From assembly GCF_002310835.1 (NCBI RefSeq), contig NZ_CP011041.1:870001-902000 (forward strand): a DNA stretch of 32,000 nt, in the 5' to 3' direction. Each line of letters starts with the position of its first letter. The first letter of the stretch is position 1. Of this stretch, positions 4,130-18,372 are shown in pieces. Both the position numbers and the translations under genes were made by a program. The DNA is from Pseudoalteromonas tetraodonis. GTDB lineage: Bacteria; Pseudomonadota; Gammaproteobacteria; Enterobacterales; Alteromonadaceae. The notes under the pieces were generated by a model, which made no database searches, was not told where the DNA came from, and saw nothing but the letters and a program-made list of their open reading frames with translations.

Positions 4130-4893
4130 GCAGTAAAACGTGGGTTATTAAACTCGGTGGCGCAGTACTCAATACTGAAAATGCCGCTAAAGCGCTTTTT
4201 GAGGTTCTTAATGAACAACATGATGCACAATTTGTCATTGTTCATGGCGGTGGCTCATTAGTTGACCATTGGCTAGCAGAAGCCGGTTTTGCCAGTGCTA
4301 AACACCAAGGTTTGCGTATCAGCCCTAAAGAACAGATGCCTTATATTGTAGGAGCATTAGCGGGAGCAGCAAACAAACAATTAATGGCGCAAGCAATGAC
4401 TGCTGGGCACAAACCCGTTGGCTTGAGTTTATATGAAGCTGGAATAACAGCATCACAAAAATTAAAAGCGCTAGGGCAAGTAGGTCAATGCCATAGTAAT
4501 GATGATTCTATTATTAATGAATTACTCAGTGGCGGGCGTTTACCTATAGTCAGCTCCATCGGTTTTGATGAGCAAGGGCTTTGGTACAACGTTAATGCTG
4601 ACGAAGCAGCAGCCGCGATTGCGAGTAATTTAAACGCCGAACTTATTTTTATGACAGATGTAGAAGCGGTGCTTGATGTGAATAAGCATCCACTACATCA
4701 ACTTGACACAAAACACATTGATACTTTAATTGCAGAGGGAGTAATTGTGGGCGGGATGGAGGTCAAAGTTAAGACCAGCCTTCACGCTGCCCAACATTTA
4801 CGACGCGGTGTGTACATTTCCAGCTGGCAAAAGCCAGAAAATTTAACGGCTTTGCTGCAAGGCGAGCACGTCGGAACTAAAGTGACACCATAG
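4126..4893 (+). CDS. argB: acetylglutamate kinase
   Basis: 255 aa with amino-acid-kinase motifs (IKLGGAV, VIVHGGGS, NVNADEAAAAIA). It sits between argC and argF. Confidence 0.95.
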   Translation: MSSKTWVIKLGGAVLNTENAAKALFEVLNEQHDAQFVIVHGGGSLVDHWLAEAGFASAKHQGLRISPKEQMPYIVGALAGAANKQLMAQAMTAGHKPVGLSLYEAGITASQKLKALGQVGQCHSNDDSIINELLSGGRLPIVSSIGFDEQGLWYNVNADEAAAAIASNLNAELIFMTDVEAVLDVNKHPLHQLDTKHIDTLIAEGVIVGGMEVKVKTSLHAAQHLRRGVYISSWQKPENLTALLQGEHVGTKVTP

Positions 4894-4900
4894 GTTGAAT

Positions 4901-5833
4901 ATGTTTAAAGATTTTATAACGGGTCTAGAATTAGACCAACAAGGCGCCCTTAATTTATTAAAATTAGCGCAAGATATTAAAGAAAGCCCTGCAAAGTACA
5001 GCCAAGTGTTAGCTGGTAAGTCAGTGGTTACTCTCTTCGAAAAGCAAAGTTTACGTACGCGTTTATCGTTTGATATTGGTATAAACCGTTTAGGCGGTCA
5101 TGCGGTTTATCTTGATCAACAAAACGGCGCGATGGGAGCTCGTGAATCAATAAAAGATTTTGCCTTGAATATTTCAACTTGGGCTGATGGTATCGTTGCC
5201 CGGGTTAATCAGCACAGTACGTTAACTACCTTAGGTGAGTATTCGTCTGTTCCGGTGGTTAATAGTTTGTGTGATTTATATCACCCATGCCAAGCCTTAG
5301 CTGATTTTTTAACGCTTCAAGAAGTGCACGGTGATGTTAGTCAGCTAAAGTTGGCTTATTTAGGTGAAGGTAATAACGTAACGCATTCACTGATGCTACT
5401 CGCAGCAACTTTAGGTACTGATTTTGTTGCTGTGACGCCAAAAGGCAGTTCGCCCGATTCGCAAATTCTTAAAAAAGCGGAGCAAATTGCCGCAATGAAT
5501 GGGGCGTCTGTGATGGTAAGTGACAGAGTTGAGGCTGCGGTAGGTGCTAACGCAGTTTACGCTGATACCTGGGTTTCTATGGGAGACACCACACCGCTTG
5601 AGCAAGTGAAAGAAAAATACATGCCTTATCAATTAAATCAGGCATTACTTAAAAAAACTGGGGCTACCACGGTATTACATTGCCAACCGGCACACCGTGA
5701 GTTTGAAATTACCTCTGAGGTAATGGATGGCCCCGCATCAAAAATTATTCAACAAGCAGAAAATCGTATGCATGCGCAAAATGCTCTGCTTGTTACATTA
5801 TTAAATCCAAATTTTGTTAAGGAACACCTATGA
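4901..5833 (+). CDS. argF: ornithine carbamoyltransferase (short ~310-aa type)
   Basis: Motifs present: carbamoyl-phosphate motif [13 protein letters not shown], ornithine motif DTWVSMG, and an HCQPAHRE (HCLP-type) motif. The ORF track starts at TTG 4895; the ATG at 4901 is the more likely start. Confidence 0.92.
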
Positions 5834-12423: not shown

Positions 12424-13881
12424 ATGCTTAAATTTATCGTCAAACTTCACCCTGAAATAGCCATTAAAAGCCGTTCAGTCCGTAAACGCTTTACTAAAGT
12501 GTTAGAAAATAACATTAAAATTGTATTGCGTCGTGTTGACGAAAAAGTACAGGTACGTAATAACTGGGATAACATTTCAGTTGTAACAAAACTTGACGAT
12601 GCTCAAACTCGCCTTGATTTTATCGACAGCTTACAACGTATACCTGGTATCGTGCAGTTTATTGAAGTGACTGAAACAGACTTTAAAACGATTGATGACA
12701 TTTATCAAAAAACTATTGAGCTAGTTGGTCACACTATTATTGGTAAAACCTTTTGTGTCCGTGCTAAGCGCATAGGTCAACATGATTTTACTTCAACTGA
12801 GCTAGAGCGTTACGTTGGTGGCGGGCTTAATCAACATGTTGAAGGGGCTCGAGTAAAGCTAAGTCGCCCAGAAGTAACGATTCGTTTAGAAATTAAAGAC
12901 GAAAAAGCCTACATAGTAACGCAAACGCATTTAGGAATGGCGGGCTTTCCACTGCCAACACAAGACGATGTATTATCGCTTATGTCTGGTGGGTTTGATT
13001 CTGGCGTTGCCAGTTATCAAATGATCCGTAAAGGTGCTCGCACGCACTTTTTATTCTTTAATTTAGGTGGCGCTGCTCATGAAATTGGGGTTAAACAAGC
13101 GAGTTACTATCTATGGAAACAATACAGCTCTACTCACAAAGTTAAGTTTATTACTGTTGATTTTGAGCCAGTGGTTGCTGAAATCTTAGAAAACGTTGAG
13201 AACAGCCAAATGGGCGTTGTCCTTAAACGTATGATGATGCGAGCGGGTAGTGCCGTTGCTGAAAAACTAAATATTCAAGCATTGGTTACGGGTGAAAGTA
13301 TAGGTCAGGTGTCTAGTCAAACCTTAGCTAACTTAAGTGTGATTGACCGCGTAACCGAAACGCTCATTTTACGCCCACTTATCCAACATGATAAGCAAGA
13401 AATCATCAATATAGCGCGCCAAATAGGCACTGCAGAAATGGCAGAGACGATGCCTGAATACTGCGGTGTGATCTCTAAAAAGCCGACAGTTAAAGCCAAA
13501 ATTGAAGTAATTAAAGCAGAAGAAGAAAAGTTTGACTTTGATGTGTTAGATACCGTTATTGATAACGCCCGTGTTATGGATGTGCGCGATATTGATGTTG
13601 AGGCTAAGCAAGAGCTTAAAGAGGCAGAATCAGTTACAGAGTTACCTGAAGGAGCGGTTGTTGTTGATATTCGCTCGCCTGAAGAAGAAGATGCGGCGCC
13701 GCTGGAAATTGAAGGTATTGAAGTTATCCACTTACCGTTTTTCCGCTTAGCAACAAAGTTTGGCGATTTACCTAAAGGTAAAGATTATTACTTATATTGC
13801 CAAAAAGGAGTAATGAGCCAATTACAAGCGCTTATTCTTCACGAAGAAGGCTTTAACACCGTAAAAGTATATCGTCCTTGA
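12424..13881 (+). CDS. thiI: tRNA 4-thiouridine(8) synthase / sulfur carrier ThiI with C-terminal rhodanese domain
   Basis: 485 aa. The N-terminus MLKFIVKLHPEIAIKSRSVR resembles E. coli ThiI. It has the PP-loop SGGFDSGVA and a C-terminal rhodanese domain with the active-site Cys context YCQKGVMS. Confidence 0.96.
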   Translation: MLKFIVKLHPEIAIKSRSVRKRFTKVLENNIKIVLRRVDEKVQVRNNWDNISVVTKLDDAQTRLDFIDSLQRIPGIVQFIEVTETDFKTIDDIYQKTIELVGHTIIGKTFCVRAKRIGQHDFTSTELERYVGGGLNQHVEGARVKLSRPEVTIRLEIKDEKAYIVTQTHLGMAGFPLPTQDDVLSLMSGGFDSGVASYQMIRKGARTHFLFFNLGGAAHEIGVKQASYYLWKQYSSTHKVKFITVDFEPVVAEILENVENSQMGVVLKRMMMRAGSAVAEKLNIQALVTGESIGQVSSQTLANLSVIDRVTETLILRPLIQHDKQEIINIARQIGTAEMAETMPEYCGVISKKPTVKAKIEVIKAEEEKFDFDVLDTVIDNARVMDVRDIDVEAKQELKEAESVTELPEGAVVVDIRSPEEEDAAPLEIEGIEVIHLPFFRLATKFGDLPKGKDYYLYCQKGVMSQLQALILHEEGFNTVKVYRP

Positions 13882-13895
13882 TGGCTTAAGATATT

Positions 13896-14159
13896 GGGTC
13901 TGTTGACCTTTGCGGATTATAATTTGTTCAAACTAGGGGCGGTTTAATCGCGGCGCGAGGTTTGTAACCTAGTGGGCTAAGTAAAAATCGAGCAACAAAG
14001 AGTAAATCGCCCCTAGGCAGAACCCTTCGGGCAGCGCCTGTTTGGCATTGATGCTGCGTTATCGCCTATTTATGGGGAATAACCACACCACATAGGCTCT
14101 GCCTTACCTAAATACCAAACAGACTGCTGCAAATTTAACCTTGAAAGGTCAACAGACCC
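13896..14159. other. 264-bp inverted-repeat-bounded, highly self-complementary intergenic element (MITE-like element or structured sRNA)
   Basis: Perfect 16-bp terminal inverted repeat: GGGTCTGTTGACCTTT (13896-13911) / AAAGGTCAACAGACCC (14144-14159). Nested helices: 13933-13946 with 14003-14016 (14 bp, one G-U); 14031-14045 with 14115-14130 (5+8 bp); 14064-14069 with 14092-14097. No ORF longer than 15 codons lies on the + strand. Confidence 0.6.
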
Positions 14160-14164
14160 TAAAT

Positions 14165-14191
14165 GCGCGGATTTATTCCGCGCTTTTTTTT
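14165..14191 (+). terminator. + strand rho-independent terminator (ends the thiI transcript and/or an intergenic RNA)
   Basis: GCGCGGA (14165-14171) pairs with TCCGCGC (14177-14183), loop TTTAT, then T8 (14184-14191). The T-run is on the + strand only. The hairpin overlaps the last codons of panE on the opposite strand. Confidence 0.8.
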
Positions 14192-15075
14192 GCCAGAATT
14201 TCAGCAAGTAAAGCGTCGTTATACGGGGTCGCAATATTATGTCGCTTGCCTTGCTCACTAATATAACCACAAATTGCCATGATCTCAGTTTGTCTATTAT
14301 GCATTACATCTTGATGCATCGAAGAGTAATTTTCGGCAGTTAAACTCATTACTTTGTAAGCCCGCTCTAGGGCATCTATAAGCTTAATATTGAGTTTTAG
14401 CGCGGTTGCAATGTGGCATGCCTCAGCTAATAAATTAATAATTGCACTACTGTATTGCGGTGCACGTAACTGACCATTTTTTATATTGTGGTGAGCGGTT
14501 AATGGATTTATTGCAATATTAACCAGTAGCTTTTCAAACCGTAGTTGTTCAATATTGTTACTGACAATTAACTGCGGAATAGTGTGTAATTGCGCACTAA
14601 GCTGTTGAATATTTTGAATAGCTAGTTGATTACAGCCCCCTAATACACTTTGCCCGTTTCCGGTATGTTGCACAATATTAGGGTTTGACTTAAATCCAGC
14701 CATGCTGGTGGTTAAAAAGTACAACGACTGCTGCTTTGTTAGCTGTTCATTTAATTGTTCAACATTACCCATGCCATTATGACTCAGTATAATATGGGTA
14801 TTATTGCCTAGATAAGGTTTTACTTGAGCATAGGCTTGTTGCACTGCAAACGCTTTTACCGTGAATAAAACAATATCAAATTCAGGAGTTTGAGATAACT
14901 GCTCTTGTGAGATAAAAGTGGCGTTAATTTTTTCAGACGCAGCGTTACTGTGGCTGTAAAAGCGAGTATTAACTGTGCCTTTTCGAGTAAGTATATATAT
15001 AGCGTGATGCTTGGCTAAAAAATGGCTAAATAACAAGCCAATAGCGCCATCACCTACAACAAGTATGTTAGCCAT
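14173..15075 (-). CDS. panE: 2-dehydropantoate 2-reductase
   Basis: 300 aa with an N-terminal NAD(P) motif VVGDGAIGLL. LVNIAINPLTA and TAENYSSMHQDVMHNRQTEI match E. coli PanE ([31 protein letters not shown]). The thiI / panE / yajQ neighbourhood is as in E. coli. Confidence 0.85.
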   Translation of the reverse strand: MANILVVGDGAIGLLFSHFLAKHHAIYILTRKGTVNTRFYSHSNAASEKINATFISQEQLSQTPEFDIVLFTVKAFAVQQAYAQVKPYLGNNTHIILSHNGMGNVEQLNEQLTKQQSLYFLTTSMAGFKSNPNIVQHTGNGQSVLGGCNQLAIQNIQQLSAQLHTIPQLIVSNNIEQLRFEKLLVNIAINPLTAHHNIKNGQLRAPQYSSAIINLLAEACHIATALKLNIKLIDALERAYKVMSLTAENYSSMHQDVMHNRQTEIMAICGYISEQGKRHNIATPYNDALLAEILAKKSAE

Positions 15076-16299: not shown

Positions 16300-16334
16300 A
16301 GCAGTCTATTTTCAAGGTGCTTACTAAACACTTC

Positions 16335-16511
16335 AATGGTGTGATTTTTTTAGTAGGATAATCGGGAAGTTGGTGCGTTTTCATTGATGAAGTCAATCCC
16401 AACACTGCCCCCGCAACGGTAAAGTTATGCTGTATTAAATTATGGTAACTGAGTCCGGAGACCGGCCTTGATTTAATCTTACTTACTAACATCTTTGCGG
16501 TGGGCAAAGAT
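16335..16511 (+). promoter_or_regulatory. cobalamin (B12) riboswitch with expression-platform hairpin
   Basis: Conserved elements: AATCGGGAAGTTGGTGCG (16360-16377), CACTGCCCCCGCAACGGTAAAG (16403-16424) and the B12 box AGTCCGGAGACCGGCC (16452-16467). A hairpin ATCTTTGC / GCAAAGAT (16491-16511) abuts the AGGGGA SD of btuB. Confidence 0.9.
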
Positions 16512-16518
16512 AGGGGAC

Positions 16519-18372
16519 ATGATGCTAAATAAAACCGCACTGGGTATGGCCATTTCGGCTGCACTCTCTTTTTCTGTATCTGCTGCAGAACAATCAATCG
16601 AAACAATAACAGTAACCGCTAATAAGTTTGAACAACCTATAAATGATGTATTAGCAAGTGTGGCAGTTATCGAGCGCGCTGATATTGAAAAAGCGAATTA
16701 TCGAGACTTACCTGCAATATTAAATACTATTGCTGGGATAGATATTGTTCGTAATGGTGGGTTAGGTCAAAAAGCAGATATATTTGTTCGCGGGGCCAGT
16801 GCTAAATATACCTTAGTATTGGTTGATGGCGTAAGAGTGAGCGATGCAAGTTCAGGTAGTGTATCGCTGACGAATATTCCAGTTAACAGTATCGAGCGTG
16901 TTGAAATTATAAAAGGTGCCAGAGCGGCTATTTATGGCTCAGACGCGGTAGCCGGAGTAATTAATATTATCACCCGTAAAGCCTCAAATAACTCGCTTTC
17001 GGCTACTTTAGGCAGCCATAGCTACAGTAATTATCAGCTTGCTGGTGGGCTTGTAAAAGAGGCGCTTAGCTTTAATTATAATTTAGGCTACGAAGAGACG
17101 GATGGTTTTGATGTTACTGGCAAAGATCCAGCGGCTGAGTACACAAAAGATCATGATGATGATGGCTACAAAAATAAAAACATTGGCTTTAATTTAGCTT
17201 ATGAGCTTGCTGAACTAGGCCAATTGAGCCTGCAATCTCAGTATAGTGAAGGCGAAGCACAATATGATAATGCAAGGGGTAACGATGCCTACGACTTTGA
17301 AAATTACACCGCTAAGCTAGGCTGGAACAAAGCCTCAGATATATATAGCCAAAGTACTTCGGTGAGCGTTTCGCAAGAAGAAAATACCCAAACAGGTACC
17401 GATGTGCAGCAAGTGTATAGCACAGAGCGTGTTGAGTTTGAATATCGAGGGCTTTATACCCTTACTGAAGAACTTGATATATCGGGTGGCTTTAATTATT
17501 TATCTGAGGATTTATCAAACTCGTCAGCAACGTCATCAGAAGAAAAACGCGATAATAAGGCGTTGTTTATAGGCGCGTTTTATAGCCATAACAAATGGTT
17601 AGCAAATGCGGTTGTTAGAACCGATGATTATGACTTCCATGGCCGTGCAAACACTTACAGTACAGGACTTGGTTACAAAGCAAATAACTATGTAACACTA
17701 CGTTTAAATCACGGTACTGCATTTAGAGCTCCTTCGTTAATTAATGCGTTTGTGACTAACAGCCCGTACTATTTACCAAACAATAATATTAAACCTGAAG
17801 AAGCCTTAAATAATGAGCTTGGTATAACTTTAGAAACCCAATGGGGCCGTTATGATATTGCTATTTTCGATAACCGTATCAATAATTTGATTAGTAATAA
17901 TTATGATGCAGACTCAGGTAAATATATTGCCACTAACATAGATAAAGTATCTATGCAGGGATTTGAGCTGTCGGCAGAGTTTTCAGCGCTAGGCTTTGAA
18001 CACTCGGTTAATTTTAGCTTTTTAGACGCTACAGATGAAAAAACGAATACCGATTTACCACGTAGACCTTCTGAATCGTTTAATTATCAACTCGCTAAAA
18101 CATGGGGTGATTTTGATGCCAGCTTGGATATGCAATATCGCTCATCGCGTCCTTCGATTGCGTATTATGACTCGGAGCTCGCTGCTTATACGGTATTTAA
18201 TATAGCAGCCAATTACCAGTTGCTAGATAATTTGTCGTTAGCTGCTCGAATAGAGAATATTACTGATGAAGAATATTTTACTGCTGCGACGGGCTTTGCT
18301 GCCAGTGGTAAGCTATTAGGTTATAACAGCGCAGGAAGAACTTTCTTTGTAGGGGCAAATTATCAGTTTTAG
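16519..18372 (+). CDS. btuB: TonB-dependent vitamin B12 outer-membrane receptor
   Basis: It has a signal peptide (MMLNKTALGMAISAALSFSVSAA) and a TonB box and plug (ETITVTANKFEQP, compare E. coli DTLVVTANRFEQP). It ends in a terminal aromatic residue (GANYQF). A B12 riboswitch lies directly upstream. The ORF track's TTG 16495 start lies inside the riboswitch platform. Confidence 0.9.
   Translation: MMLNKTALGMAISAALSFSVSAAEQSIETITVTANKFEQPINDVLASVAVIERADIEKANYRDLPAILNTIAGIDIVRNGGLGQKADIFVRGASAKYTLVLVDGVRVSDASSGSVSLTNIPVNSIERVEIIKGARAAIYGSDAVAGVINIITRKASNNSLSATLGSHSYSNYQLAGGLVKEALSFNYNLGYEETDGFDVTGKDPAAEYTKDHDDDGYKNKNIGFNLAYELAELGQLSLQSQYSEGEAQYDNARGNDAYDFENYTAKLGWNKASDIYSQSTSVSVSQEENTQTGTDVQQVYSTERVEFEYRGLYTLTEELDISGGFNYLSEDLSNSSATSSEEKRDNKALFIGAFYSHNKWLANAVVRTDDYDFHGRANTYSTGLGYKANNYVTLRLNHGTAFRAPSLINAFVTNSPYYLPNNNIKPEEALNNELGITLETQWGRYDIAIFDNRINNLISNNYDADSGKYIATNIDKVSMQGFELSAEFSALGFEHSVNFSFLDATDEKTNTDLPRRPSESFNYQLAKTWGDFDASLDMQYRSSRPSIAYYDSELAAYTVFNIAANYQLLDNLSLAARIENITDEEYFTAATGFAASGKLLGYNSAGRTFFVGANYQF

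Follow-up and report, generated by a model that had tools for sequence, protein, structure and literature searches.

What is the 264-bp stretch of non-coding DNA that separates thiI from panE in Pseudoalteromonas tetraodonis? It lies at positions 13896-14159 of the 32,000-nucleotide stretch of contig NZ_CP011041.1 analyzed here (positions 870,001 to 902,000, forward strand), which we call the window. A preliminary description, made from the letters of the sequence, had offered two readings. The first was a mobile element resembling a miniature inverted-repeat transposable element (MITE), with a suggested affinity to Tn3-family transposons, and the second was a gene for a structured small RNA (sRNA) with its own promoter and terminator. 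Taken whole, the element is very probably a non-autonomous IS5-family transposable element, a MITE without a gene of its own. Judged by its sequence, it has each of the defining MITE features that we examined, and the first reading was supported by the finding of an element that is multi-copy, dispersed, flanked by TA, polymorphic at its site and bounded by ends common to autonomous insertion sequences.

A dispersed family of elements

A copy-number search by blastn, which the preliminary description had proposed, identified a dispersed, multi-copy element. In plasmid and chromid records, matches were found at 84 places on 18 replicons, with a maximum of 22 per chromid; full-length ones in Pseudoalteromonas chromids were 92-95% identical. 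Overall, full-length identity was 92-97% in Pseudoalteromonas and 66-75% in other genera, and blastn matches at ~73% were found in Vibrio and Catenovulum. Marine Gammaproteobacteria commonly carry the element. One genome per species was then scanned with a conserved internal motif (GAACCCnnnGGGCAGCG...CTCTGCCTT), which gave at least 120 loci in at least 15 genera: Pseudoalteromonas, Shewanella, Vibrio, Grimontia, Enterovibrio, Alishewanella, Rheinheimera, Thalassotalea, Bowmanella, Oceanisphaera, Aliidiomarina, Algicola, Agarivorans, Psychromonas and others. No match was seen in phage records with blastn or in viral contigs with the motif. Several loci of the same genome have different neighbors and lie at non-orthologous sites.

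Ninety full-length copies of what we call family A were extracted. Most are 262-266 bp long, some are 272-279 and 310-311 bp, and a 363-bp variant was seen apart from these. The terminal inverted repeats are conserved in all 90. Fetched loci are given L numbers below. One of them, L022, holds at 4864-5396 a direct tandem of two copies from one divergent subfamily of family A, which have the middle TA in common.

Target duplication and empty sites

The preliminary description had reported no target-site duplication. Across the family, a TA duplication is present, with TA on both sides in 66 of 90 copies compared to a TA dinucleotide frequency of 6.6% in surrounding DNA. The inferred targets, written N-TA-N, were CTAG in 28 copies, CTAA in 11, TTAA in 10 and TTAG in 8, so that 57 of the 66 follow YTAR. 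A 4-bp CTAG duplication was also considered and was ruled out, since the CTAA, TTAA and TTAG cases fit a 2-bp TA alone.

An exact look-up of the PanE protein returned the complete chromosome CP076084.1 (L126), in which the locus is identical to the window. It also returned two metagenome contigs, L127 and L128, that have an identical PanE, a panE-thiI spacing of 26 bp and the same terminator hairpin, and from which the element is absent. The empty sites that the preliminary description suggested looking for at the thiI-panE junction were thus found. Five short-read contigs stop inside the element, as a repeat would predict. Empty and filled alleles differ by several spacer substitutions and indels, so that the left TA cannot be unambiguously restored.

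Because the terminator at 14165-14191 is present at the empty sites, it is older than the insertion and is part of the convergent thiI/panE pair, not of the element. The terminator described earlier is therefore real, and its assignment to the element does not hold. This terminator of thiI and panE is bidirectional, and its T/A tract is the insertion site. After the hairpin, the tail on the panE side changes from TTTTAAAATATTT in the empty allele (L127 3904-3930) to ATTTAGGGTCTG in the filled one (window 14160-14191). With the altered tail, termination of panE may be weaker, and antisense transcription may read through into the element.

Autonomous insertion-sequence partners

At L001/L125, a MITE copy is adjoined by an 878-bp element that has the ends cTA-GGGCGTGTTGATCTTTGTGG...CAAAGATCAACAGCCCC-TAg and a gene for a transposase of 253 aa. 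This protein matches NCBIfam NF033580 (IS5 family) with 258 bits against a cut-off of 110 and has the Pfam domains DUF4096 (PF13340) and DDE_Tnp_1 (PF01609). Three relatives, 61-64% identical to the L125 transposase, are annotated as IS5 family or ISSod6/ISSpu10. They are ISSod6 from Shewanella oneidensis, ISSpu10, and a third element on a Vibrio alginolyticus plasmid. All four insertion sequences are 878-884 bp long and TA-flanked, with both ends reading GGG(T/C)NTGTTGATCTTT. We take this TA-duplicating short subgroup of the IS5 family (ISSod6/ISSpu10 type) to be the IS427 group.

The MITE and the insertion sequences have identical ends over 16-22 bp. Variant ends of the MITE agreed with the insertion sequence found in their own genus in the examples that were compared (GGGTC in Shewanella and ISSod6, GGGCG in Vibrio). 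When a profile of the MITE arms was run with nhmmer against the four insertion sequences, homology covered the outermost ~42 bp on the left and ~29-36 bp on the right, with nothing further in. An origin of the interior as a deletion derivative of the insertion sequence was ruled out, as homology ends at ~42 bp.

As an observation on the partner itself, the transposase of L125 460-1337, from Pseudoalteromonas sp. HL-AS2, is 100% identical to one on the Aliivibrio salmonicida plasmid NZ_CP034238.1, which points to recent transfer between genera.

Anatomy of the element

The features of the locus, with the evidence for each, are as follows.

12424-13881, + strand: thiI, the upstream neighbor (list of open reading frames, or ORFs; Pfam ThiI, THUMP and ThiI_fer on the identical locus L126)
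13894-13895, no strand: left flank TT, a degenerate TA target duplication (TA here in 72 of 90 family copies)
13896-14159, no strand: the whole MITE of family A, 264 bp (full-length matches elsewhere; missing at the empty sites L127 and L128)
13896-13911, + strand: left terminal inverted repeat, 16 bp, perfect, the same as the ends of ISSod6, ISSpu10 and two other IS5-family elements; presumably the end at which a transposase binds and cleaves
13912-13937, + strand: left subterminal region with the motif ..ATTT(T)G.., still homologous to insertion-sequence ends by nhmmer
13926-14023, + strand: left arm, a long irregular hairpin with helices P2 (GUUC/GAAC), P3 (13933-13949 with 14000-14016), then P4 and P5 (RNAalifold and pair counts; z of -4.5 alone; matched by the right-arm model on the - strand)
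14024-14030, no strand: central mini-hairpin CC-UUC-GG, the symmetry center; in the alignments its loop is variable and its stem invariant, the latter partly by construction because the stem belonged to the scan motif
14031-14130, + strand: right arm, a long irregular hairpin and inverted homologue of the left arm, with helices P7 (14031-14045 with 14115-14130), then P8-P11 (122 bits with covariance model R1, described below)
14144-14159, - strand: right terminal inverted repeat, 16 bp, perfect (repeat search)
14160-14161, no strand: right TA, the target duplication copy (TA here in 79 of 90 copies)
14165-14191, + strand: intrinsic terminator common to convergent thiI and panE, outside the element and unchanged at the empty sites
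14173-15075, - strand: panE/apbA, the convergent downstream neighbor (ORF list; Pfam ApbA and ApbA_C)

The terminal pair GGGTCTGTTGACCTTT / AAAGGTCAACAGACCC is perfectly complementary over 16 bp, as had been described, and the complementarity does continue imperfectly beyond, giving arms of 34 nt that are 76% complementary. There is no further occurrence of the 16-bp repeat in the 32-kb window. Just two ORFs lie at the element, both unconserved and overlapping its right-hand end. Differences in length between copies are not multiples of three and substitutions track base pairing, leaving no conserved ORF.

Fold and compensatory change

Folding of the 264 nt gave -99.4 kcal/mol (z -5.8) on the + strand and -107.3 kcal/mol (z -7.3) on the - strand. 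None of 200 dinucleotide-preserving shuffles equalled the fold of the window copy, and each arm folded alone had a z of about -4.5.

Covariation was assessed in an alignment of 73 copies of 262-266 bp, with a mean column identity of 81%. The RNAalifold consensus contains 67 pairs, 34 of which show changes on both sides in at least one sequence. Standard pairs fill 96.4% of the cells, compared to 33-46% when the 3' partners are slid by 1-3 columns, and the covariation score is 0.342, compared to 0.05-0.08 after the same slide. The observed values of pairing and covariation were reached in 0 of 500 column shuffles. At several positions three or four pair types occur; positions 149-227, for example, have UA in 41 copies, GC in 22, AU in 5 and CG in 5. 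P3 and P7 show many compensatory changes. The pairing of the arms has been preserved across genera by compensatory substitutions. The three internal helices of the preliminary description are real and correspond to P3, P7 and P10 of the family consensus, and its impression of structure beyond chance agrees with the z-scores on both strands and with the compensatory changes that keep the helices.

The scan motif makes its own bases invariant in the sample; the covariation and the other motifs are unaffected by this. Conserved motifs outside the scan pattern are GCGUUAUCG, CAACAAAGAG, UUUUGUUC, GCUGCAAA and GCCUUG.AUAAA, and among them GCGUUAUCG, CAACAAAGAG and GCCUUG.AUAAA are unpaired.

Longer variants of family A (311-363 bp) were seen at L054 5032-5394, L117 6941-7303, L082 2541-2855 and L040 157-471. 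Their extra small hairpins sit within the P5 terminal loop and ahead of the CAACAAAGAG junction, and the remaining fold is intact.

Two mirror-image arms

R1 is a covariance model of the right-hand domain with 118 positions. It scores 83-136 bits on nearly all complete family A copies, and it also matches the left-hand domain on the opposite strand, with E-values from 1e-6 to 1e-13 across copies. In the window, this second match covers 13922-14037 on the - strand (39 bits, E 3e-6), and it is as high as 70 bits in L059. Beyond the ends, the left arm is ~42% identical to the reverse complement of the right arm, and the order of the motifs is equal. The interior consists of one hairpin arm of ~100-115 nt, duplicated in inverted orientation on the two sides of a central CCCnnnGGG. 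Either arm forms a fold of its own, and the terminal inverted repeats close the whole element.

Which strand folds was addressed through wobble pairs. A + strand RNA appeared to be indicated by a count of 215 G.U against 36 A.C in the inner helices. This candidate was rejected as an artefact of predicting the structure from one strand, because prediction from the + strand admits G.U columns and drops A.C columns. For an unbiased count, the reverse-complement alignment was folded too, giving 82 pairs predicted from both strands. The counts were as follows.

Closing stem: 26 G.U cells and 30 A.C cells; G.U exceeds A.C at 6 pairs and A.C exceeds G.U at 7
Left arm: 78 G.U cells and 25 A.C cells; G.U exceeds A.C at 17 pairs and A.C exceeds G.U at 7
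Right arm: 12 G.U cells and 56 A.C cells; G.U exceeds A.C at 6 pairs and A.C exceeds G.U at 15

With this pair set, no strand is consistently favored for the whole element. The bias is instead mirrored: each arm favors the strand whose 5' to 3' direction leads from the terminus of that arm toward the center. The mirrored bias fits the inverted-duplication architecture and is suggestive evidence against one long single-strand RNA as the selected product. One possible source is selection on a nucleic acid that is read from either flank toward the center.

A second family and smaller relatives

Profile searches of the fetched loci revealed a second MITE family, family B, which is ~261-273 bp long and TA-flanked, with ends (TACCCAAACCACCTCAAGATGC) unrelated to those of family A. 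Members were found at L053 6695-6955, L083 3539-3800, L096 2650-2922 and 4618-4888, and L064 6684-6945, and the family is also present in Pseudoalteromonas chromids and in Photobacterium. The interior of family B aligns with that of family A arm for arm. Its helices are kept through double-sided changes, seen for example in 4 of 4 family B sequences at pairs 17-131 to 20-128, and the covariation of the right arm persists when family B is added to the alignment.

Smaller relatives are of two kinds. Miniature elements of ~58 bp consist of two family B inverted repeats with few bases between (L001 1366-1422, L057 5518-5573). Candidate single-arm relatives, found as weak or partial matches to R1, are L059 2184-2331 (26 bits, E 0.005) and L079 312-471 (40 bits, spanning model positions 25-103). 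They form single long hairpins of 148 and 160 bp, each with its own closing inverted repeat. In L059 2184-2331 this repeat is 21 bp long, and the element has a z of -8.9. Both candidates contain a GCCUUG..AUAA motif and an apical hairpin resembling UAGAAYAACUA.

Expression signals

The promoter proposed in the preliminary description, TTGGGT-18-TATAAT at 13894-13923, was not recovered by a standard sigma-70 scan of 13800-14260, which returned no promoter. Two of its bases are private to the window copy, and sister copies have TA and TAAAAT at these places. Both private changes (the TT flank and TATAAT) shift the left end of the window copy toward a sigma-70 promoter. Further hexamers found by eye, TTGTTC..TTTAAT on the left and TTGCAG..TATACA on the right, align with the Pin -10 of the insertion sequences. 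They were rejected as promoters since they either lie within covarying helices or would give a transcript that misses outer helix strands. The arm regions aligned with the conserved TATAAT of the insertion sequences are inside covarying helices on the left and weak on the right, and the candidate -10 positions are paired and variable across copies. A start at the insertion-sequence-derived -10 would omit the outer strands of P3 or P7.

Relative to the upstream ORF, 40 copies are on the same strand and 46 on the opposite one, and relative to the downstream ORF, 33 are on the same strand and 53 on the opposite one, counts that depend on crude ORF calls. Orientation is close to random, with no convincing preference. 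Because the sole terminator lies beyond the element, the + strand of the element must be transcribed within the thiI 3' untranslated region.

A comparison with Rfam, which had also been proposed, identified no family that matches the element. Rfam 15 at gathering score left the element unmatched in the window and 18 other loci, and nothing relevant was found at E up to 10 on 13700-14400. The Rfam matches overall were a cobalamin riboswitch and a Spot 42 gene, neither of them in the element. A tRNA/tmRNA scan found nothing.

Competing explanations

Several observations weigh against the MITE interpretation or against a role for its arms. The window copy lacks an intact left TA (TT left, TA right); this TT is a degenerated TA. 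The link between MITE and insertion sequence is made through shared ends and TA flanks, and no cognate transposase was found in the 32-kb window. The minis that consist of family B terminal repeats indicate that mobility itself probably does not require the arms. The wobble bias comes from few pairs (17:7, 6:15) in phylogenetically related copies, and transcription-associated mutation, without selection, could also be its source. Lastly, orientation is near random and no intrinsic-terminator tail follows either arm. A miniature element derived from the Tn3 family (TIME) has next to no probability. Only the first 6-7 bases resemble the Tn3-type GGGGTCTGA, and this resemblance is superficial. 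Tn3 elements have a 5-bp target duplication and ends of ~38 bp, whereas the duplication here is the 2-bp TA and the terminal 16-22 bp are those of IS5-family elements like ISSod6 and ISSpu10, so the Tn3 affinity suggested earlier is wrong. A stand-alone sRNA gene of the locus, running from TTGGGT-18-TATAAT (13894-13923) to the terminator at 14165-14191, is very improbable. The window copy alone has a perfect TATAAT -10 and a TTG at its flank, a terminator follows, and the fold is stable. However, the standard promoter scan is empty, both promoter-improving bases are private to this copy, the terminator is also present at the empty sites, and the element is missing beside an identical PanE while hundreds of copies exist elsewhere. 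The many dispersed copies in both orientations with target duplications, the lack of a conserved promoter and a terminator older than the insertion all contradict the sRNA reading of the preliminary description, which had itself named many dispersed copies with target duplications among the signs against it.

The remaining explanations concern the interior. One possibility, which we consider rather unlikely, is that the MITE shell carries one or more functional structured non-coding RNAs as cargo, acting in trans or in cis, with the conserved arms as the product under selection and the repeats as only the vehicle. Covariation in all long helices would be expected of such a cargo, as would the conserved unpaired motifs outside the scan pattern (GCGUUAUCG, CAACAAAGAG, GCCUUG.AUAAA), the homologous core within family B between the unrelated ends TACCCAAACCACCTCAAGATGC, the candidate single-arm relatives (L059 2184-2331 and L079 312-471, weak or partial at 26 and 40 bits) and the longer variants, which gain hairpins solely in terminal loops or junctions. 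Opposed to it are the lack of a conserved sigma-70 promoter or terminator by scan and by inspection of the alignment, the near-random orientation with no single preferred strand for the whole element, the loss of the 5' strands of P3 or P7 from a transcript that starts at the insertion-sequence-derived -10, and the absence of a matching Rfam family. Another explanation, doubtful in our estimation, is that the fold has no function. The element would then be a palindrome of palindromes whose pairing is kept by DNA-level processes, such as template-switch "quasipalindrome" correction or proliferation from few master copies, and not because a folded molecule is selected. The two strands do not differ in how well they fold, the closing stem has G.U and A.C intermediates in equal measure (26 vs 30), the element is hierarchically palindromic throughout, and the repeat-only minis suggest that the core is dispensable for mobility. 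On the other hand, copies that are 25-35% different across genera still pair at 96%, with up to 4 pair types per position, the core persists with two unrelated end types, unpaired motifs are conserved too, and the mirrored G.U/A.C bias of the arms is unexpected from purely double-stranded symmetry. A tentative third idea, which we do not favor, is that the arm of ~100-115 nt is an uncatalogued, selected structured module that was captured repeatedly between different TA-targeting transposon ends. It would spread through marine Gammaproteobacteria by virtue of a benefit that its folded RNA, or single-stranded DNA, brings to the element or the host. Its features would be an apical hairpin, UAGAAYAACUA, together with GCGUUAU and GCCUUG.AUAAA in an internal loop, and its vehicles would be family A, family B and possibly the single-arm elements. 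Such a module might process or insulate transcripts that enter it, or it might control the cognate transposase.

Proposed mechanism

As a non-autonomous IS5-family MITE, the element would depend for its movement on the DDE transposase that ISSod6/ISSpu10-type insertion sequences supply in trans, a proposal based on its anatomy. The transposase would recognize the terminal inverted repeats of ~16-22 bp together with ~20 bp of shared subterminal sequence, and insertion would occur at the TA within a YTAR-like site, with duplication of the TA. The window copy landed in the T/A tract immediately before the terminator that thiI and panE share, and it lengthens the thiI 3' untranslated region by 264 nt. 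The arms may act on a nucleic acid whose reading or unwinding starts outside and proceeds toward the center, most likely in read-through transcripts from either flank. The first arm met by such a transcript would fold into a stable hairpin. This folding could make the element independent of orientation and tolerable beside gene ends, as described for REP, ERIC and Correia elements. We thus propose, with low confidence, that the arms may exert an orientation-independent effect on transcripts entering from either flank.

Other features of the loci

Two further RNA features were noted. In the window, a cobalamin riboswitch (RF00174) at 16319-16484 on the + strand (68 bits, E 5e-15) lies directly upstream of the ORF at 16495-18372. 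On the identical locus L126, this ORF has Plug and TonB-dependent receptor domains, and it is probably a B12-regulated outer-membrane transporter. In L097, from a Shewanella isolate, a Spot 42 sRNA gene at 2193-2312 on the - strand (110 bits) lies ~190 bp from the MITE copy at 1719-2000. This proximity is probably a coincidence.

Significance and comparison with known systems

For genome annotation, these findings remove a tempting false sRNA call and provide a recognizable repeat at which short-read assemblies break in Pseudoalteromonas, Vibrio and Shewanella. The covariance model of the element is a possible addition to repeat and RNA libraries, and the MITE is paired with likely insertion-sequence partners of the ISSod6/ISSpu10 type. 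The interior is not decaying junk, as the arms stay paired across genera and recur within a second family. If the arms are selected as RNA, they would constitute a mobile structured-RNA module absent from Rfam and a tractable system for what non-coding cargo does for a bacterial transposon. No description of the element was found in full-text literature, searched with the end sequences included, and a prior naming in the S. oneidensis MITE paper or in ISfinder is possible. That 2008 paper on S. oneidensis mobile elements reportedly defined three MITE types.

The closest known systems are ISSod6 and ISSpu10, with which the element shares the terminal inverted repeat GGG(T/C)NTGTTGA(T/C)CTTT, the subterminal ATTTTTG, the TA flanks and the host genera. 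These insertion sequences are ~880 bp long with a transposase, whereas the MITE is 264 bp long with no transposase gene and is unrelated to them in sequence beyond ~42 bp from each end. Mobile insertion cassettes (MICs) also have insertion-sequence ends around a core of other origin, and the same core is found here with two end types. The known passengers of MICs are protein-coding genes, in contrast to the non-coding hairpin module carried here. REP elements and BIMEs are likewise intergenic and structured, often located at the 3' ends of genes, and foldable in transcripts of either orientation. However, REPs are ~35 bp long, are not known to have terminal inverted repeats or target duplications, and are linked to tyrosine RAYT transposases rather than to DDE transposases of the IS5 family.

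A broader likeness is to Correia elements (CREE/NEMIS) of Neisseria and ERIC/IRU elements of Enterobacteria and Vibrionaceae, which are also small, intergenic, multi-copy and bounded by inverted repeats, with TA targets. Correia, ERIC and REP elements are structured, lie between genes and are transcribed together with their neighbors, and the Correia and ERIC elements form stable hairpins within the neighboring mRNAs (reviewed in PMC10969869). There is no sequence similarity between Correia or ERIC elements and the element described here, which is about twice as long. Where Correia and ERIC elements form one long hairpin, the element between thiI and panE has two separately folding, mirror-image, covarying multi-helix arms, and, in a further difference from them, its cognate insertion sequence is identifiable.

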